From: Candidatus Sysuimicrobiota bacterium
Lineage (GTDB): Bacteria; Sysuimicrobiota; Sysuimicrobiia; Sysuimicrobiales; Sysuimicrobiaceae
Direction of reading: 5' to 3'
NCBI GenBank assembly: GCA_040289515.1
Contig: PSLI01000004.1
Location: forward strand, 1-64,000
DNA length: 64,000 nucleotides
Positions within the stretch are counted from its first letter, which is position 1; each line of letters opens with the position of its first letter. This document shows, piece by piece, positions 27,857 to 43,089 of the stretch. The translations under genes and the position numbers were made by a program. The notes under the pieces are model-generated. The model saw nothing but the letters and a program-made list of their open reading frames with translations. It was not told where the DNA came from and did no database searches.

Positions 27857-29136
27857 GGCTGTCCTCCGAAGCCTTGTTCCAGCGGGCGCGGCAGGTGATG
27901 CCGGGGGGTGTCAGCAGCCCCGTGCGCGCCTTCCGCGCGGTAGGGGGCACGCCGCCGTTTTCGGTGCGAGGGATGGGCGCGTATGTGGTGGACGTGGAGG
28001 GCCGCCGCTACGTGGACTGCGTGGGCTCGTGGGGTGCGCTGATCTTGGGCCACGCCCACCCCGCGGTGGTGCAGGCCGCGCAGGCGGCGGTGGCGGACGG
28101 CAGTAGCTTCGGGGCACCCACCCCGTGGGAGGTAGAGTTCTGTGAGCGCCTGTGCCGGGCCATCCCGGGCATGGAGCGGGTGCGGCTCGTGAACTCGGGT
28201 ACCGAGGCGGTGATGAGCGCCGTGCGGGTGGCTCGCGCGGCCACGGGCCGTGAGGGGATCGTGAAGTTCGACGGGGGCTACCACGGGCACACAGACGCCC
28301 TCCTGGTGCAGGCGGGCTCCGGGGCGGCCACGTTCGGCGTGCCCGACAGCGCGGGCGTACCCGCCTCCGCGGTGCGGGCCTCCTTCTCCCTGCCGTGCAA
28401 CGACCTGGAGGCGGCCCAGGCCCTGTTCCGGCATCGGGGCCACGAGATCGCGGCGGTCCTGGTGGAGCCCGTGGCGGGCAACATGGGGACGGTGGCCCCT
28501 CGGCCCGAGTTTCTGCAGGGGCTGCGCGCGCTCATCCAAGAGTACGGTGCGCTGCTGGTGCTGGAGGAGGTCATCACAGGCTTCCGCCTGCGCTCCGGGG
28601 CGGCGCAGGACCTGTTTGGCGTGCGGGCCGACCTTGCGTGCTTGGGCAAGGTCATCGGCGGTGGGTTTCCCCTGGCCGCGTACGGGGGCAGGGCGGACCT
28701 CATGGGCTTGGTGGCCCCGGAGGGCCCCGTGTACCAGGCCGGAACCCTGTCGGGCAACCCTGTGGCCGTGCGGGCGGGCCTGGCCACCCTCCAGCAGCTG
28801 GAAGACGGAGGGGTGTACGGGCGGTTGGAGCAGCATGGTCGGATGCTGGAGGAGGGGCTGCAGGAGGCCGCCCGCAGGGCGGCTGTAGCCGTGCAGGTGA
28901 ACCGCGTGGGCTCCATGCTGACGGTGTTTTTCTGCGCGCACCCGGTGGTGGACTTCGCCACGGCCCGGAAGTCCGACGGGGCCCGGTTCGCCCGCTTCTT
29001 CCACGCCATGCTGGAACGGGGGGTGTACCTGCCCCCCTCACCCTTCGAGTCGTGGTTCTTGTCCGCGGTCCACGGGACCCGGGAGGTGGCCCACATCCTG
29101 GCGGCCTCGCAGGAGGCGTTCCGGGAGGCGGCATGA
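27853..29136 (+). CDS. hemL: Glutamate-1-semialdehyde 2,1-aminomutase
   Basis: PGGVSSPVRAF, NSGTEA, YHGH.D, GKVIGGG, QAGTLSGNP. Confidence 0.96.
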   Translation: MRLSSEALFQRARQVMPGGVSSPVRAFRAVGGTPPFSVRGMGAYVVDVEGRRYVDCVGSWGALILGHAHPAVVQAAQAAVADGSSFGAPTPWEVEFCERLCRAIPGMERVRLVNSGTEAVMSAVRVARAATGREGIVKFDGGYHGHTDALLVQAGSGAATFGVPDSAGVPASAVRASFSLPCNDLEAAQALFRHRGHEIAAVLVEPVAGNMGTVAPRPEFLQGLRALIQEYGALLVLEEVITGFRLRSGAAQDLFGVRADLACLGKVIGGGFPLAAYGGRADLMGLVAPEGPVYQAGTLSGNPVAVRAGLATLQQLEDGGVYGRLEQHGRMLEEGLQEAARRAAVAVQVNRVGSMLTVFFCAHPVVDFATARKSDGARFARFFHAMLERGVYLPPSPFESWFLSAVHGTREVAHILAASQEAFREAA

Positions 29137-29873
29137 GCGGACAGGTGCTGGTGGTGATGCCCCTGTACAACGAGGAGGCCACCGTGGAGGAGGTCCTCCA
29201 GGCGGTGTTGCGCTATGCGCCGCCGGGCGCGGACGTACTGGTGGTGGACGACGGGTCCACGGACCGGTCCCCGGAAATCCTGGCGCGCTTCCCCCAGGTG
29301 AAGGTGATCCGCCACCCGGAGAACCGCGGCTACGGCGCGTCCTTAATCGATGGGTTCCGCTATGCCCTGGAGAGGGGCTACGAGGTGGTGGTTACCGTGG
29401 ACTGCGACGCCCAGCACGAACCCTACCTCATCCCGGACCTGCTGAGCGCTTTGGAGAACGCGGAGATCGCCTCCGGGAGTCGCTACCTGCCCGGGTCCTC
29501 CCGCGGCCAGGAGCCTCCGCCGGACCGGGTGCGCATCAACCGGGAGGTGACGCAGCGGGTGAACGCCCTCACGGGCTACCAGCTCACCGACGCCTTCTGC
29601 GGCTTCAAGGCGTACCGGGCGGAGGCCCTGCGCCGGCTGCAGCTGGACGAACCCTCGTACGGGATGCCGCTGCAAGTGTGGGTGCAGGCGGCCCGGTGGG
29701 GGCTGCGCGTGCGGGAGATCCCCATCGGTCGCATTTACAAGAACCCGCACCGACGCTTCTGGGGAGGGCTGGACGATCCCGAGGTGCGGCTGCGCTACTA
29801 CCTGCAGGTGCTGGAGCGGGAGGCCTCCCGCTGGCTGCGCCAGCCCACCTGCTCGGGGGAGGGAGGTCCGTGA
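29133..29873 (+). CDS. Family 2 glycosyltransferase (DPM-synthase-like)
   Basis: VMPLYNEE, VDDGSTD, NRGYG, DCDAQH, GSRY, D..CGFKAY. Confidence 0.92.
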   Translation: MSGQVLVVMPLYNEEATVEEVLQAVLRYAPPGADVLVVDDGSTDRSPEILARFPQVKVIRHPENRGYGASLIDGFRYALERGYEVVVTVDCDAQHEPYLIPDLLSALENAEIASGSRYLPGSSRGQEPPPDRVRINREVTQRVNALTGYQLTDAFCGFKAYRAEALRRLQLDEPSYGMPLQVWVQAARWGLRVREIPIGRIYKNPHRRFWGGLDDPEVRLRYYLQVLEREASRWLRQPTCSGEGGP

Positions 29874-30550
29874 GGACGATCCTGGTCCTTGCCCCGCACC
29901 CGGACGACGCGGAGATCGCCATGGGCGGCACCATGGCGGTCCTGGTGGCGCAGGGCTGGCGGGTGGTGATGTGCGACCTGACGGACGGTGAACCCACCCC
30001 CGTGGGGACACCCGAGCGCAGACGCCAGGAGGCGGAGCAGGCGGCCCGCATCCTCGGGGTGGAGCGTCAGATCCTGGACCTGCCAAACCGTTTCCTGCTG
30101 GACGGGGTGGAGGCCCGCAAGAAGGTGGCCGCGGTGATCCGCGCGGTGCGGCCGGAGTGGCTGTTTGTGCCGTACTGGGAGGACGCACACCCTGACCACG
30201 TGCAGGCCGCAGCCCTGTGCGAGGCGGCACGGTTTTACGCCAAGCTCACCCACACGGACGTCCCGGGAGAGCCGTGGTACCCGCACCGCGTGGTGCACTT
30301 CTTCTCCACCCACTACCGAATGGTTCGCCGTCCCTCCTTCGTGTTCGACATCAGCGACACCCTGGAGCGCAAAATGGAAAGCCTTCGCGCGTACGAGAGC
30401 CAGTTCGGACCCGAGCGGGGCAAGCAGGCAGTTCTGGAGGCGGTGCTCCACGCGGCTCGCTACTTCGGTTCCCTCGTGGGCGTCCTGTACGGGGAGCCCT
30501 TCCTGCTGCGGGAGGAGCTCGGGGTGCGAAATCTGGAGGCACTGGTGTGA
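29870..30550 (+). CDS. bshB1: PIG-L/BshB1-like N-acetylglucosaminyl deacetylase
   Basis: APHPDDAE..MGGT, DLTDGE, HPDH, YESQF, GEPF. Confidence 0.85.
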   Translation: MRTILVLAPHPDDAEIAMGGTMAVLVAQGWRVVMCDLTDGEPTPVGTPERRRQEAEQAARILGVERQILDLPNRFLLDGVEARKKVAAVIRAVRPEWLFVPYWEDAHPDHVQAAALCEAARFYAKLTHTDVPGEPWYPHRVVHFFSTHYRMVRRPSFVFDISDTLERKMESLRAYESQFGPERGKQAVLEAVLHAARYFGSLVGVLYGEPFLLREELGVRNLEALV

Positions 30551-32079
30551 CCCGGTCCGAAGAACTCTCCCTGCCCACCCGCCACGGGGAGGTGCTGTGC
30601 GTCCCGGAGTTTGGCCGCTGGCTGGAGGTGGCGGAGCAAAACGCCCGCAGGCTGGAGTCCCAGCGGGTGCTGCGGGAGCTGCGGGAGCAGGCCCGGCGCG
30701 AGCTGGTGCAGCGCGCGGGAGCACTGCTGGAGCGCTGGGGCCTGCACCGCCCCGAAGTGGGCGCCGGCCCGTGGGTCGGTACGGGCCACCAGCCCGCCCT
30801 GTACCACCCTGGGATCTGGATCCGCACGTGGGCGGTGGCGGCCTGCCAGCAGCGCGGTGCCGTGGGGGTGCACGTGGGGGTGGACTCGGACGAGTGCGAG
30901 CGTTTCGGAGCGCGGGTTCCCCGCCGGGACGACGGCAGGCTGCGGGTAGTGGAGCGCGTCCTGGCAGAGGGGGGCCGGGACGTGCCCTTCGAGTGCCTGC
31001 CGGCTCCCGCAGAAGAGGCCTGGCGCGCCTTCTGCGCACGCCTTCAGGAGGACGTGGCCACCCTGGGGCTTCCGGAGGTTGAAGGGCGCCTGGCGCGCGC
31101 GGAGCGGGCCGGGCTGGCGAGCTTGGCCCGTGCCCGGCACCTGGGCGAATTCGGGGCCGGCCTGCGCCGGCATCTGGAGCTGGACTGCGCGCCGGTCCGG
31201 TACCTGGAGGTGACCGCCTCGGAGCTTTCTAGAACCCGGGCGTTCGCCCGCTTCGCTAGCTGGATCGCGCAGGACGCAGAGCGCTTCTGGGCATGCCACA
31301 ACCAGGCCCTGGAGGACTACCGGCGCCAGCAGGACCTGCGGTCGCCCGCGCAGCCGTTCCCCAACCTGCGGCGGGAAGGTGGACGGGTGGAACTACCCTT
31401 CTGGCTGGTGCGGGATGGAGTGCGGCAGCCCGTGTTCGTGCAGCCAAACCGTCCTCCCGTGGCCTTCTGCCGGGGTGCGGCGGTGGGAGAGCTGTCAGAG
31501 GAGGGGCTGGAGGGCCTGCGGCCCCGGGCGGTGACCCTCACCCTGTTCCTGCGCCTGGCGGTGTGCGACCTGTTCGTGCACGGGCTGGGAGGTGCCCGGT
31601 ACGACCGGGTTACCGACCGGCTGGTGCGGGAGTTCTTTGACGTGGAACCGCCGCCGTTCGCGGTGCTGACCGCCACCTACCACCTGCCCCTGGCACGGCA
31701 TCCGGATCCCCGGGCCGCGTACCAGACCGCCCAGCGCCTGTGGCAGGACCTCCACCACAACCCGGACCGTCACCTTCCACGGGACGGCGAAGTGGCCAAC
31801 CTGGTGGAGGAGAAGTGGCGGTGCATCCAGGCCTTGGAAGCACCGGGCCTACCCCGCCGGACCCGCCGGGAGCTCACGCAGCGCATCCGGGCCCTCAACG
31901 AGGCGCTCCGGGCCCGCCTGCAGGACCGAATCCGTCAGGTGGAGGCGGAGCTGGAGAGCCTGCGGCGCGACGTGGAAGAACACCAGGTGGCCGCGGACCG
32001 CACCTACCCCTTTTTCTTGTTCGACCCGGAGCTCCTGCGCACGTACTTCCGGGCGAGGGAGGAAGCGCGTTGCCGGTAG
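30547..32079 (+). CDS. Hypothetical protein, distantly BshC-like ligase
   Basis: TGHQP (cf. BshC TGQQ), D.D, HGLGGARYD, C-terminal coiled coil; follows bshB1-like gene. Confidence 0.6.
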   Translation: MTRSEELSLPTRHGEVLCVPEFGRWLEVAEQNARRLESQRVLRELREQARRELVQRAGALLERWGLHRPEVGAGPWVGTGHQPALYHPGIWIRTWAVAACQQRGAVGVHVGVDSDECERFGARVPRRDDGRLRVVERVLAEGGRDVPFECLPAPAEEAWRAFCARLQEDVATLGLPEVEGRLARAERAGLASLARARHLGEFGAGLRRHLELDCAPVRYLEVTASELSRTRAFARFASWIAQDAERFWACHNQALEDYRRQQDLRSPAQPFPNLRREGGRVELPFWLVRDGVRQPVFVQPNRPPVAFCRGAAVGELSEEGLEGLRPRAVTLTLFLRLAVCDLFVHGLGGARYDRVTDRLVREFFDVEPPPFAVLTATYHLPLARHPDPRAAYQTAQRLWQDLHHNPDRHLPRDGEVANLVEEKWRCIQALEAPGLPRRTRRELTQRIRALNEALRARLQDRIRQVEAELESLRRDVEEHQVAADRTYPFFLFDPELLRTYFRAREEARCR

Positions 32080-34595: not shown

Positions 34596-34648
34596 GGCCG
34601 CTTGACGGTGAGCGAAAGGCGCGCGGAAAATCGTGACAGGACCTTGAC

Positions 34649-34752: not shown

Positions 34753-35655
34753 TTGCTGCGACGCGAAGCCAGCTGTTCGTGCAACTGCAGGGTCCCAGGG
34801 AGCTTGCGACTCTCTCTGTCGGTGGCGATGGCGGCGTGGGTGCTGGCGGGCTGCCAGCCGTACGTCCGGGTGAGCAGCCCCGTCCGGGAGGTCTACGAGC
34901 CCCTGGAGGGGTTCGCGGTGCGCATGAACTTCATGCCCCGCAAACCCGACGCGGACGGGGGCCGGAAGATCTACGAGGCGCGGTGCGCGGTCTGCCACGG
35001 ACCGCAGGGGCGCGGGGACGGGCCCATGGCCCAGCAGCTCACGGCCCCGGAGAAGAACCCGTACACCGACTTTTTGAGCCTGTTCCGCATCCATCGCAAG
35101 GCGGAACCGTTGCCGAGCCGGCCCGCCCGGTTTGACAACCTGGATCAGATGCGGCTAAACGCCCCCTTCGCTATGTTCGAGACCATCGCCCGCGGGCGTC
35201 CCCACACCGCCATGCCCGGGTTCCAGCACCCCGCCTACGGTGCCACGGACGGCGGCGAGCCGCGCCTACGGGATCAGGAGATCTGGGACGTGCTGTTCTG
35301 GGAGTGGAGCCGCACCACCAGCCGGGAGCGCCTGGTGCAGGGCCGGCGGATCTACAACCAGCTGTGCGCCCGCTGCCACGGCGTAGGAGGGGACGGGAAT
35401 GGGCCGGAGGCGGGCCGCATCCGGCAGCAAGTGTGGACGTGGGCGCGGGGCGTGGGGCCGGGTGTTTTCACGGACCGGGACTGGATGGCGTACCGCAAGC
35501 CCACGGAGCTGTACCAGCGGATTTCAGAAGGGGTGCGGCGGCGAGGGCTGGAGCTGATGCCGGCCTACGCCGACAAGCTGTCGGCGGACCAGATCTGGAC
35601 CGTGGTAGAGTACCTGTGGACGTTCGTGTACACACCCCCGAAGGACCTGCGGTAG
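34753..35655 (+). CDS. Diheme c-type cytochrome, probable lipoprotein
   Basis: LAGC lipobox; CAVCH..AMPGF and CARCH..LMPAY; start uncertain. Confidence 0.88.
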   Translation: MLRREASCSCNCRVPGSLRLSLSVAMAAWVLAGCQPYVRVSSPVREVYEPLEGFAVRMNFMPRKPDADGGRKIYEARCAVCHGPQGRGDGPMAQQLTAPEKNPYTDFLSLFRIHRKAEPLPSRPARFDNLDQMRLNAPFAMFETIARGRPHTAMPGFQHPAYGATDGGEPRLRDQEIWDVLFWEWSRTTSRERLVQGRRIYNQLCARCHGVGGDGNGPEAGRIRQQVWTWARGVGPGVFTDRDWMAYRKPTELYQRISEGVRRRGLELMPAYADKLSADQIWTVVEYLWTFVYTPPKDLR

Positions 35656-35666
35656 GAGGTGGCCGG

Positions 35667-36311
35667 GTGGATCGTCGCACGTTCTTAAAGGCCCTGAGCG
35701 CGCTGCCCGTGGTGGGGGCTGTGGGAGCCTTCCTGGCGCCCTTGCTGCGCTACCTGAAGCCGAACCTGGAACGGGGACTGGGCCTGCCGCAGGGGAAGCT
35801 ACCGCCCGACCTGGCGGAGGGGGACCTCCCCACGGGCGAGCCGCTGCCCATCGCTACCTTGGAGGAGCTGCGGGAACCGTGGTCCAGCAAGTTCTTCGTG
35901 TTCACGCAGAAGTACCCACAGTACACCCCGGAGCTGGCCAAGGCGGCCACGGTGCCGGGGGTGGCCATCAAGCTGCCGTGGAAGCTGCCCTTTCCGGGCT
36001 ACAAGGGAGGGAAGGAGCCCACGGACATCGTGATCTTCTCCCGCATCTGTCCGCACCTGGGCTGCATCTTCAACTACGTGCCCAACTGGCGGGAGGTGAC
36101 GGCGGGCTACGGGGGCTACGTACCGCCGGAGGACCGGCGGCACGGGCTGCTCGCGTGCCCGTGCCACCTGTCCATCTACGATCCCGCGGACCGGGAACTT
36201 CCTGGCCGGGTGCTGTCGGGCCCCGCGCCCCGGCCGCCCCGCTACTTCACCTACGAGATCCGGGGCGGGGTGATCGTGGTCACCGGGGCGGAACCCGGCG
36301 GGATCGCCTGA
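35667..36311 (+). CDS. Rieske [2Fe-2S] subunit of a Rieske/cyt b complex
   Basis: Tat motif DRRTFLK; CPHLGC and CPCHLSIY; GPAPRP. Confidence 0.95.
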   Translation: MDRRTFLKALSALPVVGAVGAFLAPLLRYLKPNLERGLGLPQGKLPPDLAEGDLPTGEPLPIATLEELREPWSSKFFVFTQKYPQYTPELAKAATVPGVAIKLPWKLPFPGYKGGKEPTDIVIFSRICPHLGCIFNYVPNWREVTAGYGGYVPPEDRRHGLLACPCHLSIYDPADRELPGRVLSGPAPRPPRYFTYEIRGGVIVVTGAEPGGIA

Positions 36312-36324
36312 GGGAGCCGGAGCC

Positions 36325-37473
36325 GTGTGGGACCGGTTGCGAGAGTGGTTCCGGGAGCGCAAGGAAAAGCTGGACCTGTTCGACGAGACCCACGTCGACC
36401 GCCAGGACAACCCCCTGTACATCCTCGGCCAGATCGTCTACTTCGCGTGGATCGCCGTGGTGGTAAGCGGCATCCTCCTCATGATCTGGTACGAGCCTAC
36501 CACCCACGGCGCGTACAACTCCATTCTGCGCATCCAGCGGGAGGTGCCCCTGGGTTGGCTGACCCGCGGCGTGCACAAGTACGGCGCGGACATGCTGATC
36601 CTGGCCATCACCCTGCGCATCTACCGGATGTATTTCCTGGGAGAGTACAAACGGCCCAACGAACTGTCGTGGATGATCCTGTTCGGCTCCCTGGTGCTGG
36701 CCATGATCTCCGGGCTCACGGGCTACCTGCTCATCTGGAACCAGCGGGCCTTCTGGGCGGCCAAGGTGGTGCTCACGGTGGCCGTGTACCTGGACCAGCT
36801 CCCCCTGATCGGCCAAACGCGGTTCGGCAGCGCCATCGCCTTCGCCTTCCTGGGCGGGCCGGCGGAGGGGCAGGGAACCCTCACCCGGTTCTACGCCATC
36901 CACTTCGGGATCTCCGCGCTGCTGCTGGTGGCCTCGGAGGTGTACTTCTACTTCACCCGCCGGCGCCGGTTCGTCCTGTCCCCCACGGCCCTGGTGATCC
37001 TGCTGGCTATGCTGGTGGTAACGAGCTACGTGTTCCCCGCAGAGATGGGCCGCCGGGCCGACCCCAACCGCACGCCCCTGCCCATCCTGTCCGACTGGTA
37101 CTTCCTGGCCCTGTACCAGTACGTGAAGTATACCCCGCCCCTGTGGGCGGGCCTGGGCCCCGGGCTTTTGATCGCTTACGGCATGCTGGTCCCCTTTTTG
37201 GACCGCAGCAAGGGCCGCAGGCCCTCCGAGCGCCCCTTCTTCACGGTGGTGGGGGTCATGGCCCTGACGTACTTCCTCGTGTTCACGGCCCTCATCCTGT
37301 TCAACATCGCGGTGATCGGCCGGGATCCCCACGTGGTCCTACTGGTGACCGCGGCGACTTTGACCCTGGGCCTGGTGCTGGAGTTCCGCTACCGGCGACG
37401 GAAGAAGCTGGCGGAGCTCGCCGCACCGACTCCCGCGCCGCGCGCGGCGCCAGCTCGGGCCGCGGCGGGGTGA
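36325..37473 (+). CDS. Cytochrome b (unsplit, about 8 TM), only the two heme-bL His ligands retained
   Basis: RGVH, TGYLL.W.Q, TLTRFYAIH, Qo-like ILSDWYFL; bH positions are Arg and Tyr. Confidence 0.92.
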   Translation: MWDRLREWFRERKEKLDLFDETHVDRQDNPLYILGQIVYFAWIAVVVSGILLMIWYEPTTHGAYNSILRIQREVPLGWLTRGVHKYGADMLILAITLRIYRMYFLGEYKRPNELSWMILFGSLVLAMISGLTGYLLIWNQRAFWAAKVVLTVAVYLDQLPLIGQTRFGSAIAFAFLGGPAEGQGTLTRFYAIHFGISALLLVASEVYFYFTRRRRFVLSPTALVILLAMLVVTSYVFPAEMGRRADPNRTPLPILSDWYFLALYQYVKYTPPLWAGLGPGLLIAYGMLVPFLDRSKGRRPSERPFFTVVGVMALTYFLVFTALILFNIAVIGRDPHVVLLVTAATLTLGLVLEFRYRRRKKLAELAAPTPAPRAAPARAAAG

Positions 37474-37480
37474 GGGGGCG

Positions 37481-37744
37481 TTGGAAGTCGTGCGGTTCGC
37501 GGCAAGCTTCGGTGTGGCCGTGTTGAGCCTGCACGGAGCCTGGCAGGCATTCGGGCTGGCTTGGGCGGACCCACGGGCGGAGCGCTGGCTCGTCCTGGGC
37601 GTGTACCTGGCCGCCCTGCTGGCCTCAGGAGCATGGGCGGGCTACCTCGTCTACGCCGCGGACCGCAGGGCGGGACGGGTGCGGCGACGGGTGGGGCTGT
37701 ACGAGCGGTGGCTGGCAACGCCTCGGGGAGGGAGGGGGCCGTGA
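37481..37744 (+). CDS. Small 2-TM membrane protein
   Basis: In-operon ORF after GAGGGGG, two hydrophobic segments. Confidence 0.65.
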   Translation: MEVVRFAASFGVAVLSLHGAWQAFGLAWADPRAERWLVLGVYLAALLASGAWAGYLVYAADRRAGRVRRRVGLYERWLATPRGGRGP

Positions 37745-37941
37745 GGAAGGACCGCAGCACATGGCACTTCGCCCTGGCCGGTTTCCTGGCGGTGCTGGCC
37801 CTAGCCGGAGTGGCCCTTATGGTGTACGGGGAGTGGTTTGACCAGCGGCTGGTGGCCTCCGGGGCCCTGGGCGTGATCCTGGTTTTGTACGCGGCCATCG
37901 TAGTGCTGTTCCGGAAGGCGGGTCTCACCGCGGAGGAGTAG
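37741..37941 (+). CDS. Small 2-TM membrane protein (66 aa)
   Basis: GTGA overlap, GGAGG RBS, two hydrophobic segments. Confidence 0.7.
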   Translation: MRKDRSTWHFALAGFLAVLALAGVALMVYGEWFDQRLVASGALGVILVLYAAIVVLFRKAGLTAEE

Positions 37942-37942
37942 G

Positions 37943-39118
37943 GTGTACCGACGGCTGCTTTTGAGCCTGCAGAGCGCCACCCTGAGGCTGGACACCGTCC
38001 TAAACCGCGTCCTGCCCCAGGACTTCAACCCCCTGTACTACACGGGCGGGCTTGCGAACCTGTTCCTCACCATCCTGGTGGTGTCGGGGATCCTCATTTT
38101 CCTGTACTACGAGCCCAGCCTGGAGGGCGCGTACGCCTCCGTGGAGTTCCTGACCCGGGACGTGCCCTACGGGGTGGTGTTCCGGGGGATCCACCGGTAC
38201 GCCGCGGACGCCTACATGGTGGCGATCCTGCTGCACCTGTTCCGCAACTGGTTCACGGACCGCTACCGGGAGGCGCGGGACAGCCAGTGGCTGTCGGGCA
38301 TGTTCCTGCTGGTGGTCTCGGGCTTTGCGGGCTTCACGGGCTACCTGCTGGTGTGGGACGAGCGAGCCCAGCTGCTTACAAGCCTCACGGCGCAGGCCCT
38401 ACGGTCGGTGCCCCTGGTGGGAGGCTGGCTGGCCCGGGTGTTCCTGGGCGGGCCGGGTGTGAGCGACACGACCCTGTCCCGGTTCCTGTACCTGCATGTG
38501 GGGCCCGCCATGACCGTGTACGTGCTCCTGTGGTGGCACTACGTACGCCTGCGCCACCCCAAGATCTGGCCTCCCGCGGTGTGGGTGCTGTTCAGCCTGG
38601 GCCTGCTGTTCATCCTCGCCTCCGCGCTGCCCGCGGCCAGCGGCCGTCCCGCGCAGCCGGGCGCGACCCCGGGGGGGTTCGCGGTGGATTGGTTCTTCCT
38701 CTGGCCGTACGTGCTCGCCCGGTGGCTGGCGCCAGCCTGGGCCATGGTCCTGGTGGGAGCCCTTGTGGCGTACGGCATGGTCATCCCCTACACCCTACGG
38801 GAGACGCCCGAGCAGCGCGGCCTGCGGGCCCTGGGCCAGGCGGTGGTGGTGGAGGAGAACTGCACCGGCTGCGAGCTGTGCTACTACGACTGCCCGTACA
38901 ACGCCATCTACATGGTACCCAGTCCCTACCCCGGCAAGAGCCGGGCCGCGGCCAACCGCAAGCTGCTGGCGGTGGTGGTGGACTCCCGGTGTGTGGAGTG
39001 CGGGATCTGCATCGGCGCCTGCCCGTTCGAGGCGCTGGAGCTGCCCAGGATGCTGGAAAAGGACGTGCAGCAGAGAATCCGGCGGGGCGCCCAGGTGGAG
39101 GCGCCCGTCCCTTCGTGA
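37943..39118 (+). CDS. Second cytochrome b fused to a C-terminal 2x[4Fe-4S] ferredoxin domain
   Basis: Four His (38192, 38234, 38495, 38537); VDWFFL; CTGCELCYYDCP and CVECGICIGACP. Confidence 0.92.
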   Translation: MYRRLLLSLQSATLRLDTVLNRVLPQDFNPLYYTGGLANLFLTILVVSGILIFLYYEPSLEGAYASVEFLTRDVPYGVVFRGIHRYAADAYMVAILLHLFRNWFTDRYREARDSQWLSGMFLLVVSGFAGFTGYLLVWDERAQLLTSLTAQALRSVPLVGGWLARVFLGGPGVSDTTLSRFLYLHVGPAMTVYVLLWWHYVRLRHPKIWPPAVWVLFSLGLLFILASALPAASGRPAQPGATPGGFAVDWFFLWPYVLARWLAPAWAMVLVGALVAYGMVIPYTLRETPEQRGLRALGQAVVVEENCTGCELCYYDCPYNAIYMVPSPYPGKSRAAANRKLLAVVVDSRCVECGICIGACPFEALELPRMLEKDVQQRIRRGAQVEAPVPS

Positions 39119-39127
39119 GGCGCAGCC

Positions 39128-39562
39128 ATGGGGACAGCACCGGAGCGCACCCCGCAAGCCAATCCCCAAGGACCGGCGCGGGTGGTGGGGTTTTTGTGTG
39201 ACTGGGCGGTGCGCAGCGAGGGACTGCTGAACGCGGACGACACCCTGGTGGGCATGCCCCACGTGACCGTGATCCGGGTGCCCTGTTCCGGTTTCGTAAA
39301 GCCCGCGTGGCTGGAGCTGGCCCTGCGCAGTGGTGCTGCGGGCACCTTCGTGTGCGGGTGCCCCATGGGCGACTGCCTGAACCGGGAGGGTAACTGGATC
39401 ATGGAGGGCCGCATCGACCAGCTGCGCAAGCGGCTGAGCCGCCAGAAGGTGGATCCCGACCGGGTGGCCTTTTTCGCCTTCGGGCTGCACGAGCGGGAGG
39501 CCTTCCTTCAAGCCGTGGCGGAGTTCGTGAACAGGCTCGCCGGATCCGGAGGGAACCGGTGA
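39128..39562 (+). CDS. MvhD/FlpD-like [2Fe-2S] protein
   Basis: GFLCDW, IRVPCSG, GCPMGDC..REGN, V.P.RV pattern of MvhD. Confidence 0.85.
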   Translation: MGTAPERTPQANPQGPARVVGFLCDWAVRSEGLLNADDTLVGMPHVTVIRVPCSGFVKPAWLELALRSGAAGTFVCGCPMGDCLNREGNWIMEGRIDQLRKRLSRQKVDPDRVAFFAFGLHEREAFLQAVAEFVNRLAGSGGNR

Positions 39563-39675
39563 TGCGGTTCGGCCCGAAGCGGTGGAAGACGTACCTGTGG
39601 TACGTTGTCTTCTACCTCCTGTTCTTCGCCCTGCTCCTGTTCGTAGCCGCCTTCGGGTTGGTGGCGGAGGCGTAG
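39562..39675 (+). CDS. 37-aa single-TM protein (not in ORF track)
   Basis: MRFGPKRWKTYLWYVVFYLLFFALLLFVAAFGLVAEA; GGAGGG RBS, start overlaps previous stop. Confidence 0.7.
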   Translation: MRFGPKRWKTYLWYVVFYLLFFALLLFVAAFGLVAEA

Positions 39676-39689
39676 GGCGGGAGGGTCGC

Positions 39690-41084
39690 ATGCTGGTGTG
39701 GATGTTCACGGACGAGCGGTGGAGTTCTGCCCGCAGGTTCCTGTACGCGGGCACCCTGTGGGCGCTGGTGGCCCTGGCGTACGAGGCCCTGGCGGCCGCC
39801 CAGCGGGCGTGGCCGGCCCTGCTGTCGGAGTTTCCATGGGCTTCCCACGGGCGGGTGGTGGCCTTAAGCCACGACCTGTGGGTTTTCGGCTTTTTGTCCC
39901 AGCTGCTGGTGGCCTCGGCCCTGCGGGTGATGGGGCAGACGGACCGGGAGGGGATCTGGAGCGAGCCCGTAGCGCACCTGGCTGTTTGGCTGTGGAACCT
40001 AGCCCAGGCCCTGAGCTGGTGGTGGCTGTCGGTGGGCTGGACCCGGGGAAGGCCGCTGGCGGAGGCCCCGTGGCCGGTGGACGGGCTGCGTGTGCTGGCC
40101 GCTTTGGCGCTGTGGTGGGTGGTGCGCAACAGCCTGGTTCGGTCGTCCCGGCGGGAAGCTGGCTTGGCCCTGGTGGCGGTGGCCTTCGCGGGTCTGCCGC
40201 TGGTGCTGGTGCTGGGCAAGGGGCTGTTCTCGCCCTTCGACAACCCTTACCACGGCCTCCTGGACGCCCTGAGCCAGGCCTTCCTGCGGGCGGGCTTGGT
40301 GTGGCTGTGGCTAGTACCTCTGGCGGGCGGTGTGTCTTTGTACGTGCTGTCCGCCCTTACGGGCCGGCCGGGTCTGTCGGAGGGCATGGGCCTTTCGGCG
40401 GTGGTGGGGCTGGTGAGCTTTGGCGCCCTGGCGGGGCCTGCGGAGTTTGTATGGGGCCCGGTCCCCTTCTGGGTGCAGACCGTGGGCACCGTGGCGCGGG
40501 GCCTGCTGCTGCTGCCCGCGGCGACCCTCCTGGCCGGCGTGGTTCGGTCCCTGGACGGCCATTGGCGCAGCCTGGGGAACCACCCGGGCGTGGTGCTCAC
40601 CCTGGCGGGATGGCTCGCGGTGTTCTGCGGGGCGGCGGCGGACGCCCTCGCCTCCCTGGTGGGGCCCAGCCGGCTGGTGCACCTGTCCCTGTGGGGTGAG
40701 GGTGTTCGGGTGCTCCTGCTGACCGGCGCGGGTGCGGTGGCCGCCGGATGCGTGTACCTGTTGACCCCTCATGTGCTGGGCCGATCCCTGGTCAGCAGGG
40801 CTGCCGCGTGGCGCCACCTCTGGCTGGTGGTGGTGGGATGGTCGCTTTCCGCCCCCTTCCTTCTGCTGGGCGGGTTGGTGCAGGGTGCGGTGTGGGTCAC
40901 GGGCACAGTCCCCTTCGCGCACGCGGTGCAGGCCGTGCGGCCCTTGCTGGGGGGGGGCTTTGTGGGCCTGCTGGTGGCGTGGGCCGCGCAGGGAGTGTTC
41001 GCGTGGAATGTGTTCCTGACCGCGGACTCCGGGGAGCCCGTGCCCGCCGCAGAGCAGGAGCTGGCCGCGGTGGCGGGGTCCTGA
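39690..41084 (+). CDS. CcoN-like (cbb3 subunit I fold) membrane protein lacking heme/Cu histidines
   Basis: GR..L..VFGF, GRPLAE.PWPVD, G..DAL.Q, AGP, VP.W.Q, H...W landmarks of CcoN; ligand His positions replaced. Confidence 0.8.
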   Translation: MLVWMFTDERWSSARRFLYAGTLWALVALAYEALAAAQRAWPALLSEFPWASHGRVVALSHDLWVFGFLSQLLVASALRVMGQTDREGIWSEPVAHLAVWLWNLAQALSWWWLSVGWTRGRPLAEAPWPVDGLRVLAALALWWVVRNSLVRSSRREAGLALVAVAFAGLPLVLVLGKGLFSPFDNPYHGLLDALSQAFLRAGLVWLWLVPLAGGVSLYVLSALTGRPGLSEGMGLSAVVGLVSFGALAGPAEFVWGPVPFWVQTVGTVARGLLLLPAATLLAGVVRSLDGHWRSLGNHPGVVLTLAGWLAVFCGAAADALASLVGPSRLVHLSLWGEGVRVLLLTGAGAVAAGCVYLLTPHVLGRSLVSRAAAWRHLWLVVVGWSLSAPFLLLGGLVQGAVWVTGTVPFAHAVQAVRPLLGGGFVGLLVAWAAQGVFAWNVFLTADSGEPVPAAEQELAAVAGS

Positions 41085-41099
41085 GGTGCAGGAGGTGTC

Positions 41100-41561
41100 G
41101 TGGTGAGGGATCCCGTAGCGCACCTGGTGCGACTGGCGGTGGCGGCCGTGCTGTGCGGGTTCGTGGCCACCGTGCTCCTGCCAGCGTTGGACCCCGCGGT
41201 GCGCACGGCGCGGGCAGCGCCCCTGTCGGCGCAGGCGGCGCGGGGACGGTGGGTGTACGCCCGGGAGGGGTGTGCGGCCTGTCACACCCAGCAGGTGCGT
41301 ACGGTGGAGGCGGGGTTCGGCATGGTGCGCCGGAGGGGCGACGTGGGAGAGGCTTCCTCGCCAAGCCAGTACGCGGGGCAGGACCCGGCCCTGTTGGGGC
41401 GGCTGCGGATGGGGCCGGACCTGACGCACGTGGCCTCCCGTGCCTCCGCGGAAGAGCTGCGTTCGCTAGTTCGGTCCGGCACGGGAGGGATGCCCGCGTA
41501 CCGGCACCTGCCCGATCCGGAACTGGCGGACCTCGTGGCGTACCTGCTGACCCTGCGATAG
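41100..41561 (+). CDS. CcoO-like monoheme cytochrome c
   Basis: TM anchor; GR.VY.REGCAACHTQQVR, R.GPDL, MPAY. Confidence 0.88.
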   Translation: MVRDPVAHLVRLAVAAVLCGFVATVLLPALDPAVRTARAAPLSAQAARGRWVYAREGCAACHTQQVRTVEAGFGMVRRRGDVGEASSPSQYAGQDPALLGRLRMGPDLTHVASRASAEELRSLVRSGTGGMPAYRHLPDPELADLVAYLLTLR

Positions 41562-41569
41562 GAGGAAGG

Positions 41570-42109
41570 ATGGAGGCCCAAACGCCGCGACCGTCCCGCT
41601 GGCTGGCGCTGCTGTACGTGCTGCTGCCTCTGTGGGCAGTGACGTACCTGTTCGTGGCGGGAGGACTGGTGGCTCCGGAGGTCCGGCCGGTGGCCCGGAA
41701 CGTGGAGGGCGTCTCGGCGGGTGTCGGCGCGGCACCGGACGGGTCCGAGCAGGTGCTGGGGATCCTCGAGGTGGTGCCTGAGGACGCGCGGGACGACCAG
41801 CCGCCCCGTCCGGTTACCGCGGCCATGCTGGCGCAGGCGAAGGCACGGTACGACACCCTGTGCGCCGTCTGCCACGGCCCGGAAGGCCGGGGCGACGGCC
41901 CCGCGGGCGCGGCTCTTAACCCCAAGCCGGTCAACTTCCATTTCCGCGCTTTCCAGGAGCGCATGCCCGTGGGTGCCACGCACTGGGTGATCAAGAACGG
42001 CCTGGGTAACACCGCCCGCCGCAGCGGGATGCCCGCCTTTGGCCAGCTGCCTGACGACCAGATCTGGGCCCTGGTGGAGTACATACGGCGGCTGGGCCGC
42101 CGGCCATGA
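41570..42109 (+). CDS. Membrane-anchored monoheme cytochrome c (CcoP-like anchor)
   Basis: RWLALLY..LWAVTYL anchor; CAVCH, GMPAF. Confidence 0.88.
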   Translation: MEAQTPRPSRWLALLYVLLPLWAVTYLFVAGGLVAPEVRPVARNVEGVSAGVGAAPDGSEQVLGILEVVPEDARDDQPPRPVTAAMLAQAKARYDTLCAVCHGPEGRGDGPAGAALNPKPVNFHFRAFQERMPVGATHWVIKNGLGNTARRSGMPAFGQLPDDQIWALVEYIRRLGRRP

Positions 42110-43089
42110 GCGCTCCCGCCAACCCCGACGTGGCCCTGGCGTCCGCGTATGCACCGGTTCGGGAGGACTTGGAGCGCCTGCAGGCCCTCCTGCAGGAGGA
42201 GCTCGCGTCCCACGACCCCTTCCTGCGCGAGCTGGTGTCCCACGTGCTGCAGACGAGGGGCAAGATGGTGCGGCCGGCTCTGGCGTTCCTCTGCGCGCGG
42301 CTCGCGGGCGGAGGAGGCGCCCACCGGGACCTGGTGGCCGCGGCGGTGGAGCTCATCCACGTGGCCAGCCTGATCCACGACGACGTCATCGACGAGGCGG
42401 ACCGGCGCCGGGGCCAGGCCACCCCCAACGCCCGCTGGGGCAACCACGTGGCGGTGCTTCTGGGCGACTACCTGTTCAGCAAGGCTTTCCACCTCCTCAG
42501 CCGGGTGGGCCGGGACGACGTGGCCAGCCGGGTGGCGTTCGCCACCGTGCGCATGAGTCAGGCGGAGCTGCTGCAGGTGAAGTATGGCAGTACCCCCCAC
42601 ACGGACGAGTCGGTGTACTTCGCCATCGTGGAGGGGAAGACCGCCCAGCTGGTCTCCTCCGCGTGTGCGGGAGGGGTCCTGGTGGGCGGGGGTGACGGCG
42701 GCCTGGCGGATCGGCTTGGCACCTTTGGGCTGCACTGGGGAGTAGCCTTCCAGATCACCGACGACACCCTGGACCTCACCAGCGACCCGGAGGTCCTGGG
42801 CAAGCCCATCGGTAGCGACGTGCGGGGGGGCAAGGTCACCCTACCCCTCATCCACGCCCTGCGCCACGCGGACTCCCAAGACCGCCAGCGGCTGGAGGCT
42901 TGGATCCGCTTGGGGGAGCTGGAACCCTTGCGGCAGGCCCTGGAGCGGTCCGGATCCCTCGCCTACGCCCTGGAGGTGGCCCGGCAGCATGCCCGCAGGG
43001 CCCTGCGGATCCTGGACACCCTGCCCAGCAGCCCCGAACGCGACAGCCTCGCAGCCCTTACGGAGTTCGTGGTCTCCCGCCACCATTAG
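42106..43089 (+). CDS. Polyprenyl diphosphate synthase (HepT/IspB-like)
   Basis: GKMVRP, HDDVID..RRG, GKTA, FQITDDTLD. Confidence 0.93.
   Translation: MSAPANPDVALASAYAPVREDLERLQALLQEELASHDPFLRELVSHVLQTRGKMVRPALAFLCARLAGGGGAHRDLVAAAVELIHVASLIHDDVIDEADRRRGQATPNARWGNHVAVLLGDYLFSKAFHLLSRVGRDDVASRVAFATVRMSQAELLQVKYGSTPHTDESVYFAIVEGKTAQLVSSACAGGVLVGGGDGGLADRLGTFGLHWGVAFQITDDTLDLTSDPEVLGKPIGSDVRGGKVTLPLIHALRHADSQDRQRLEAWIRLGELEPLRQALERSGSLAYALEVARQHARRALRILDTLPSSPERDSLAALTEFVVSRHH

Follow-up and report, generated by a model that had tools for sequence, protein, structure and literature searches.

A conserved operon of Candidatus Sysuimicrobiota encoding an unusual Rieske/cytochrome b complex, likely an asymmetric heterodimer of two cytochromes b

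Several described systems come close to the one reported here. For example, in an engineered bc1 complex of Rhodobacter capsulatus, one half has no haem bH and the other is blocked at its quinol-oxidising (Qo) site by G158W, which knocks out Qo, and growth is supported via the bL-bL bridge (PMC4152375). Kao and Hunte (2014) described a PDWF-FeS clade, in which a cytochrome b with an xDWF motif is fused to 4Fe-4S and MvhD domains and the cluster has no Rieske gene (PMC4122944). The supplement of PMC6349859 lists petB, petB and petC of Melainabacteria beside the type C oxidase genes ccoN and ccoO, and the 'two cytochrome bc' operon reappears in 10.1101/531145, which takes it from Soo et al. 2017. 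In this study, we analysed a window of 64,000 nucleotides (nt) from Candidatus Sysuimicrobiota (assembly GCA_040289515.1, contig PSLI01000004.1, positions 1 to 64,000 of the forward strand). The complex encoded by the operon at 34753-42109 on the + strand is a real, conserved and unusual variant of the Rieske/cytochrome b family, and it is likely a heterodimer of two different cytochromes b, called b1 and b2 here.

The host genome used in the analysis (G000, 96.7% complete) is placed in CSP1-3 (Ca. Sysuimicrobiota) by named relatives of 90-93% identity. An earlier note, made from the sequence alone, had seen 11 tightly packed co-oriented genes of named families at this position; we found the same, and all 11 were judged real. 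In cytochrome b1, the ligands of haem bL are present (H84/H193) and those of haem bH are substituted (R98 and Y207), which breaks the canonical rule that each cytochrome b carries both bL and bH. Position 98, the first bH ligand in helix B, is Arg or Lys in 50/50 paired sequences, and position 207, the second bH ligand in helix D, is not His in 49/50. Because R101, S197 and E205 of b1 are invariant, we believe that the haem-free pocket is selected and has not decayed; the ratio of nonsynonymous to synonymous substitution rates (dN/dS) of b1 is 0.05-0.09. The Qo gate of b1 is Ala (A145) in 50/50, and the SDWY Qo motif is present.

Cytochrome b2 has the reverse pattern. Its four haem-ligand His are retained in 80/80 relatives, and its Qo gate is bulky, being L145 in the window and Leu, Val or Ile in 50/50. 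We take the gate position to be that of Rhodobacter G158, mapped through the W-x-Q-x-x-F-W-G pattern. The Qo segments are more conserved in b1 (0.91/0.93) than in b2 (0.70/0.60), and two cytoplasmic-side segments are more conserved in b2 (0.89/0.73) than in b1 (0.74/0.57). From these ligand patterns, a dimer of b1 and b2 is predicted to hold three b haems and one Qo site. Foldseek comparison with bc1 cytochrome b gave template-modelling scores of about 0.6-0.7, and the closest sequence matches of both proteins were cytochrome b6. They are not b6f proteins in the usual sense, because neither gene is split and, where the haem ci Cys35 would stand, b1 has Ile and b2 has Tyr. The b1 proteins of Obscuribacterales (L077:5328-7232) and of locus L090 (1534-3189) are 170-260 amino acids (aa) longer than that of the window, and their extra part had no Pfam match.

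We regard the asymmetric heterodimer, with a route from bL of b1 to bL and then bH of b2, as well supported, because the losses are reciprocal and conserved, the genes are inherited together and the complex model passes. In a survey of 80 genomes of the phylum (at least 80% complete, and kin rather than independent samples), 70 had b2 and 69 had b1, with the two together in 68, neither in 9 and a single one in only 3. The b1:b2 complex model scored 0.71 and the best of 3 controls 0.00, the mark being one reached by 116/157 solved pairs and 2/215 mismatched pairs. The runs agreed in at least 96% of contacts, and the partner pLDDT (predicted local distance difference test) was at least 82. The pass is probably due in part to the likeness of the pair to solved cytochrome b dimers. 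The modelled interface consists of helices A and D, where F194 of b1 touches V186 of b2 beside the bL ligands, and it includes Y200 of b2 and E205 of b1. Thus the two-cytochrome heterodimer and its electron route, as claimed in the earlier note, are supported, and the complex modelling suggested there as a check was passed for b1:b2, the pair to which it was applied.

The same genes could be read in another way, in which b1 and the Rieske protein form their own dimer, and b2-MvhD, co-transcribed with them, would act apart from it as a transmembrane wire in the manner of the stand-alone PDWF-FeS fusions. In a 33-sequence cytochrome b tree, which left out the clade sequences of PMC4122944, b1 forms a single clade, and b2 clusters apart from it with stand-alone Aquificaceae fusions (long branches were flagged). 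In the fully read Aquificaceae loci L104, L106 and L107, a 650-aa b::Fe-S::MvhD fusion has no Rieske or b1 gene nearby, so b2 can be a separate module, and the extract of PMC4122944 reports no Rieske gene beside PDWF-FeS members. However, in a b1 homodimer without bH, the bL electron has no exit, and b1 and b2 are almost never apart. In addition, the interface residue Y200 of b2 is invariant in 71/71 operon-type sequences and is Val or Leu in 10/10 Aquificaceae. We consider the separate wire improbable. Beside these fusions, other findings also weigh against the heterodimer or its necessity. The b1 of L090 retains the helix-D His, and genus g7 has neither b gene in 7/7 genomes (7 of the nine double negatives), with an ordinary PEWY cytochrome b in its genome G020, so the complex is replaceable.

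In CSP1-3 loci, a recurring gene order was observed, namely diheme cytochrome c, Rieske, b1, two small membrane genes, b2, MvhD, short peptide and polyprenyl synthase. The Rieske-b1-b2-MvhD core is also present in Obscuribacterales loci, where ccoN and ccoO lie upstream of it, and L090, labelled Armatimonadetes, has the core alone. In the Aquificaceae loci (L104:5352-11661, L106 and L107), the fusion and its neighbours, a haem-copper family gene and multihaem-free c-type genes resembling nirS by eye, are divergently oriented, and the fusion is followed by a hemerythrin. In family f5 genomes (L143 and L145), an ordinary Rieske/PEWY cytochrome b stands with a nine-haem cytochrome c, and the locus adjoins a molybdopterin oxidoreductase-like gene.

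On balance, we favour the view that the core genes encode the only menaquinol:cytochrome c oxidoreductase of this organism, working as a b1:b2 heterodimer with divided labour, and we infer its assembly and electron path as follows. Menaquinol would be oxidised only at the Qo site of b1. The first electron would pass through the Rieske cluster to the diheme cytochrome c, the likely acceptor of Rieske electrons (dN/dS 0.09-0.16), and from there to the A-family oxidases of CuA type, whose genes lie outside the operon. Since bH is missing from b1, the second electron would cross from bL of b1 to bL and then bH of b2. The operon b1 and b2 are the sole cytochrome b genes in G000, and its MvhD is likewise the sole one. 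A bd oxidase had no match in G000, and the two other haem-copper oxidases of this genome are of the A-family with CuA subunits; therefore, forward menaquinol oxidation should run through this complex. As to the quinone, menB scored above cut-off in G000 and neighbouring men genes were identified by eye. A futalosine route was rejected, since mqnC is absent from G000 and the MqnA/D family occurs in only 2/41 relatives, and the men route is used.

The cytoplasmic arm is the second peculiarity of b2. Helices G and H are replaced by a 2x[4Fe-4S] domain, and in the AlphaFold2 model the membrane part of b2 stops after helix F, which would place this domain in the cytoplasm; the domain itself was modelled with low confidence. 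Residues 299-387 of b2, followed by MvhD, match consecutive HdrA2 positions 571-769, and the four Cys of MvhD are retained. Only these HdrA2 positions match well in G000, where the HdrA flavin domain is absent. Like the PDWF-FeS clade, b2 is a four-His cytochrome b fused to 4Fe-4S with MvhD; its cluster is not Rieske-free. We propose that the 2x[4Fe-4S] domain and MvhD are a wire copied from the C-terminal arm of HdrA, which would join bH to cytoplasmic carriers.

The direction of this wire was then weighed within the heterodimer model. Our tentative preference, held at a little below an even chance, is that reduced ferredoxin feeds the arm and the electrons end at a non-canonical inner quinone site of b2, as in the original Q cycle of Mitchell, which has been discussed for b6f (PMC7908018). 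In this view, b2 would keep such a site. The lack of the canonical inner quinone (Qi) residues weighs against it. A canonical Qi was defined by a His five residues after the bH ligand plus a helix-E Lys/Asp, or by haem ci; in b2, position 204 is R/T/A/Q/N/S, positions 206-230 have no acidic residue in 81/81, and the haem ci Cys is absent. N29, P30, Y32, Y33, R202 and P206 are invariant on the cytoplasmic face of b2, and they could equally dock the Fe-S domain or serve quinone. G000 bears a 2-oxoacid:ferredoxin oxidoreductase (OFOR) and ferredoxin as possible donors to the arm, and every step from ferredoxin to an inner quinone site would be downhill. At low proton-motive force, the arm may run outward.

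Alternatively, the same heterodimer would have no inner quinone site, and the second electron would leave through the Fe-S arm to a cytoplasmic acceptor (quinone-based bifurcation). The candidate acceptors are NAD(P)+ via a flavoprotein, ferredoxin, FixCX or a complex I without NADH module. The missing Qi residues suit this reading, and so does the Rieske protein, which has the S-Y signature of high potential in 58/58 sequences despite the menaquinone host. Such a signature is linked to more than 260 mV, and PDWY-type cytochromes b pair only with lower-potential Rieske proteins (PMC4122944), so the potential predicted from the signature would give an unusual extra driving force. A similar bifurcation has been proposed for anammox complexes (10.1101/855817). 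G000 also has, beside a 14-subunit complex I (on C37), a second complex I of 11 subunits, and NuoF had no match in the 4/4 tested Obscuribacterales genomes having NuoD, in agreement with PMC6349859. However, the calculation with assumed potentials, a high-potential chain of 260-300 mV and a proton-motive force of 150 mV gave a reachable acceptor of only -240 to -340 mV, short of ferredoxin. If the electrons return via a pumping complex I, the loop can be balanced only at a proton-motive force under about 106-128 mV, yet the complex appears to be the sole quinol-oxidising route. Moreover, no HdrA or flavoprotein partner is encoded in the operon and no HdrA in G000, and the three g7 genomes tested, all without b2, retain the second NuoD. 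Export could still work if NAD(P)+ were the acceptor or if the electrons returned by a path that pumps no protons, such as FixCX. Because the energetics disfavour obligatory export to ferredoxin, we ranked input slightly above export, and we regard a complex that only exports as unlikely. The earlier note had proposed bifurcation to, or input from, a cytoplasmic partner; ferredoxin export proved hard to sustain at normal proton-motive force, and input is at least as likely.

The second complex I was considered as the exclusive partner of the arm and rejected, because its NuoD persists in g7 genomes without b2 and OFOR can feed it. This NuoD is at least 67% identical in 38/41 genomes. The genes of the 11-subunit complex lie at G000:C48:23396-26231 (NuoB, D, I and C) and G000:C32:35793-43072 (NuoA, H, J, K, L, M and N). 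Directly after nuoN of the complete complex I, FixC/FixX-like genes were recognised by eye (G000:C37:4506-6132).

The earlier note had also described a ligand-less CcoN-O-P module and joined it to the complex as a supercomplex. The lack of ligands was confirmed. The CcoN homologue can be aligned over its full length with CcoN of cbb3 (3MK7, E 5e-21), and none of the seven active-site residues (six His plus the cross-link Tyr) is present; against TIGR00780 the protein scored 78.9 bits, the cut-off being 583. We call it pseudo-CcoN. It is under purifying selection (dN/dS 0.18-0.33, like CcmB and CcmC). The last gene is monohaem and matches no CcoP family above cut-off, and therefore the 'P' is a resemblance only. 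The supercomplex itself is putative. Pseudo-CcoN was found in 12/80 phylum genomes and in 14/41 chosen relatives (families f1, f3 and f6), so the gene-order check proposed in the earlier note showed a core conserved in the phylum and a CcoN-O-P module that is not. The slot separating the short peptide gene from the polyprenyl synthase gene was compared in 45 CSP1-3 loci. Pseudo-CcoN alone occupies it in 8 loci and a cupredoxin (a type-1 copper lipoprotein) alone in 16; 1 locus has both and 14 have neither, and the remaining 6 are cut at contig ends.

Because this slot tends to hold periplasmic electron carriers, we favour a relay role, and on this sequence evidence the module is probably an electron relay and a lineage-limited accessory. 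We infer an optional membrane scaffold whose two c haems would relay electrons toward the oxidases. G000 has other cupredoxins, and the relay therefore need not be essential. A strict exclusion between cupredoxin and pseudo-CcoN was rejected, since L073 (genome G016) has both. If pseudo-CcoN-O-P were instead catalytic in its own right and permanently built into a supercomplex of the III-IV kind, the tight gene packing, the purifying selection and the joining of the same core to an intact cbb3 in Obscuribacterales would be understandable. However, a catalytic role does not fit a protein without active-site residues found in so few genomes, and pseudo-CcoN is not sister to Obscuribacterales CcoN in the FastTree tree, whose deep nodes are weak. 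We consider a fixed catalytic module highly improbable.

For the same tree reason, the idea that pseudo-CcoN is a decayed Obscuribacterales CcoN is unsupported; the 7 Obscuribacterales sequences placed were intact, with 7/7 residues. In L073, the CSP1-3 copy that branches first, two of the His remain and the second haem b position is Met; judging from these residues, this copy is possibly an intermediate. In its operon (L141:2829-5956; G016:C473), the CcoN homologue is followed by CcoO, cytochrome c and cupredoxin. Among 171 aligned CcoN-type sequences, 116 had at most 2/7 residues and 46 at least 6/7; this set, from which 8 short sequences were dropped, is biased, since its profile was made from pseudo-CcoN and close relatives were added. 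The ligand-less homologues (P0146-P0294) fall into many 50%-identity clusters and several separate clades, and some are fused to cytochrome c domains. Intact-site variants with His/Met at the haem b position were also observed (P0149, P0151, P0153 and P0154). At G000:C28:678-2368 and C11:5765-7154, cupredoxin genes lie beside multicopper proteins that resemble copper nitrite reductase by eye.

The features of the locus are collected in Table 1. The diheme cytochrome c may alternatively start at 34804. For the 87-aa membrane protein, an atlas search gave no usable lead (best 0.87). The polyprenyl diphosphate synthase, which was said to overlap the last gene and does so, ends the operon throughout CSP1-3 and probably makes the menaquinone side chain. 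The hem and ccm genes reported directly upstream are present (hemA, hemC, hemB and hemL; ccmA, B, C and E); the two blocks are, however, separated by three other genes at 29133-32079, which are a glycosyltransferase-like gene, the bacillithiol deacetylase gene BshB1 and a 510-aa gene. Within the hem-ccm block of the window, no ccmF was recognised.

Table 1. Coordinates of the operon genes and adjoining features in the window
Feature	Coordinates	Strand	Remarks
Sigma-70-like promoter candidate	34602..34631	+	Consensus match only; 1 found vs 0.3 expected; just upstream of operon
Diheme cytochrome c lipoprotein	34753..35655	+	Lipobox LAGC; 2 CxxCH
Tat-exported (twin-arginine translocation) Rieske protein	35667..36311	+	RRTFLK; both cluster boxes CPHLGC/CPCHLSIY; Tat anchor
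Cytochrome b1	36325..37473	+	8 membrane helices; Qo site WNQRAFWA and SDWY
87-aa membrane protein	37481..37744	+	No family (no Pfam match); position conserved
66-aa two-helix membrane protein	37741..37941	+	No family (no Pfam match); position conserved
Cytochrome b2::2x[4Fe-4S]	37943..39118	+	Four His ligands; two CxxCxxCxxxCP motifs
MvhD/FlpD [2Fe-2S] protein	39128..39562	+	PF02662, E 8e-25
37-aa single-helix subunit	39562..39675	+	C-terminus conserved
Pseudo-CcoN, COX1-family (E 4e-19)	39690..41084	+	0/7 active-site residues
CcoO-like (FixO-like) membrane-anchored monohaem cytochrome c	41100..41561	+	
Membrane-anchored monohaem cytochrome c in CcoP position	41570..42109	+	
Polyprenyl diphosphate synthase	42106..43089	+	4-nt overlap with last gene (42106-42109)

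The importance of electron transfer between the halves of complex III for living cells has been tested mainly with engineered fusions, and this operon looks like a natural obligatory case; nature may use a bL-bL route so far made only by mutagenesis. Through the arm, complex III would be connected directly with the iron-sulfur chemistry of the cytoplasm, a link relevant to the reduction of quinone by ferredoxin at b6f and to the proposed bifurcation from quinol to NAD(P)H. If the export reading were true, this would be a natural complex III that lacks Qi and passes its second electron along the arm to ferredoxin, NAD(P)+ or a headless complex I. Most of a phylum would then have no respiratory route but quinone-based bifurcation, which non-photosynthetic relatives of cyanobacteria would share. 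Databases label pseudo-CcoN as cbb3 oxidase, which would wrongly suggest microaerobic respiration in the genomes that bear it.

The earlier note knew of no characterised complex of this composition. Parts are in print, namely the b::FeS::MvhD fusion (PMC4122944) and the two-petB operon with its cbb3 cluster (PMC6349859); the b1/b2 asymmetry was not found described in the extracts. PMC11962464, PMC4040986 and 10.1101/328856 added nothing on it in their extracts, and the literature search returned neither a natural bH-less/Qo-less pair nor a Rieske complex accompanied by a ligand-less CcoN, although more may be said in Soo 2017, Dibrova 2013 and ten Brink 2013.

Compared with known systems, the module resembles cbb3 CcoNOP (3MK7, 6XKW and 8SMR) in its full-length CcoN homology followed by a CcoO-like protein and a further c-type cytochrome, and differs in having no ligands for haem b, b3 or CuB, no cross-link Tyr and a monohaem third gene. 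In the Melainabacteria operon, in contrast, CcoN is intact and, in the loci analysed here, upstream of the core, and the proteins are called b6f-like, with no mention of a lost haem or an Fe-S arm in the extract. The Fe-S domain of b2 and MvhD match the C-terminal ferredoxin domain of HdrA and MvhD (5ODC; NCBIfam HdrA2), but the arm here sits on a membrane cytochrome b and the genome has no flavin-binding HdrA. Unlike the PDWF-FeS clade as described, the operon encodes MvhD in a gene of its own and places b2 together with a Rieske protein and a bH-less b1. For the anammox Rieske/cytb complexes, a role in NAD(P)H formation has been proposed, and the concept, in which quinol bifurcation supplies a low-potential acceptor in the cytoplasm, is the same, whereas this operon has no NAD(P)H-binding subunit. 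With bc1, b6f and menaquinol:cytochrome c reductases, the complex shares the Rieske protein, the cytochrome b fold, the Qo motif, a c-type acceptor and the helix A/D dimer interface; it differs in its two unlike cytochromes b, its single Qo, the three b haems predicted for each dimer where the known complexes have four, the lack of both a canonical Qi and haem ci, and its cytoplasmic Fe-S arm. The cross-inactivated bc1 of PMC4152375 is alike in that bH is lost in one half and Qo is blocked at G158 in the other. That engineered complex keeps a normal Qi and has no Fe-S arm, whereas the pair encoded in this operon is natural and conserved across phyla.

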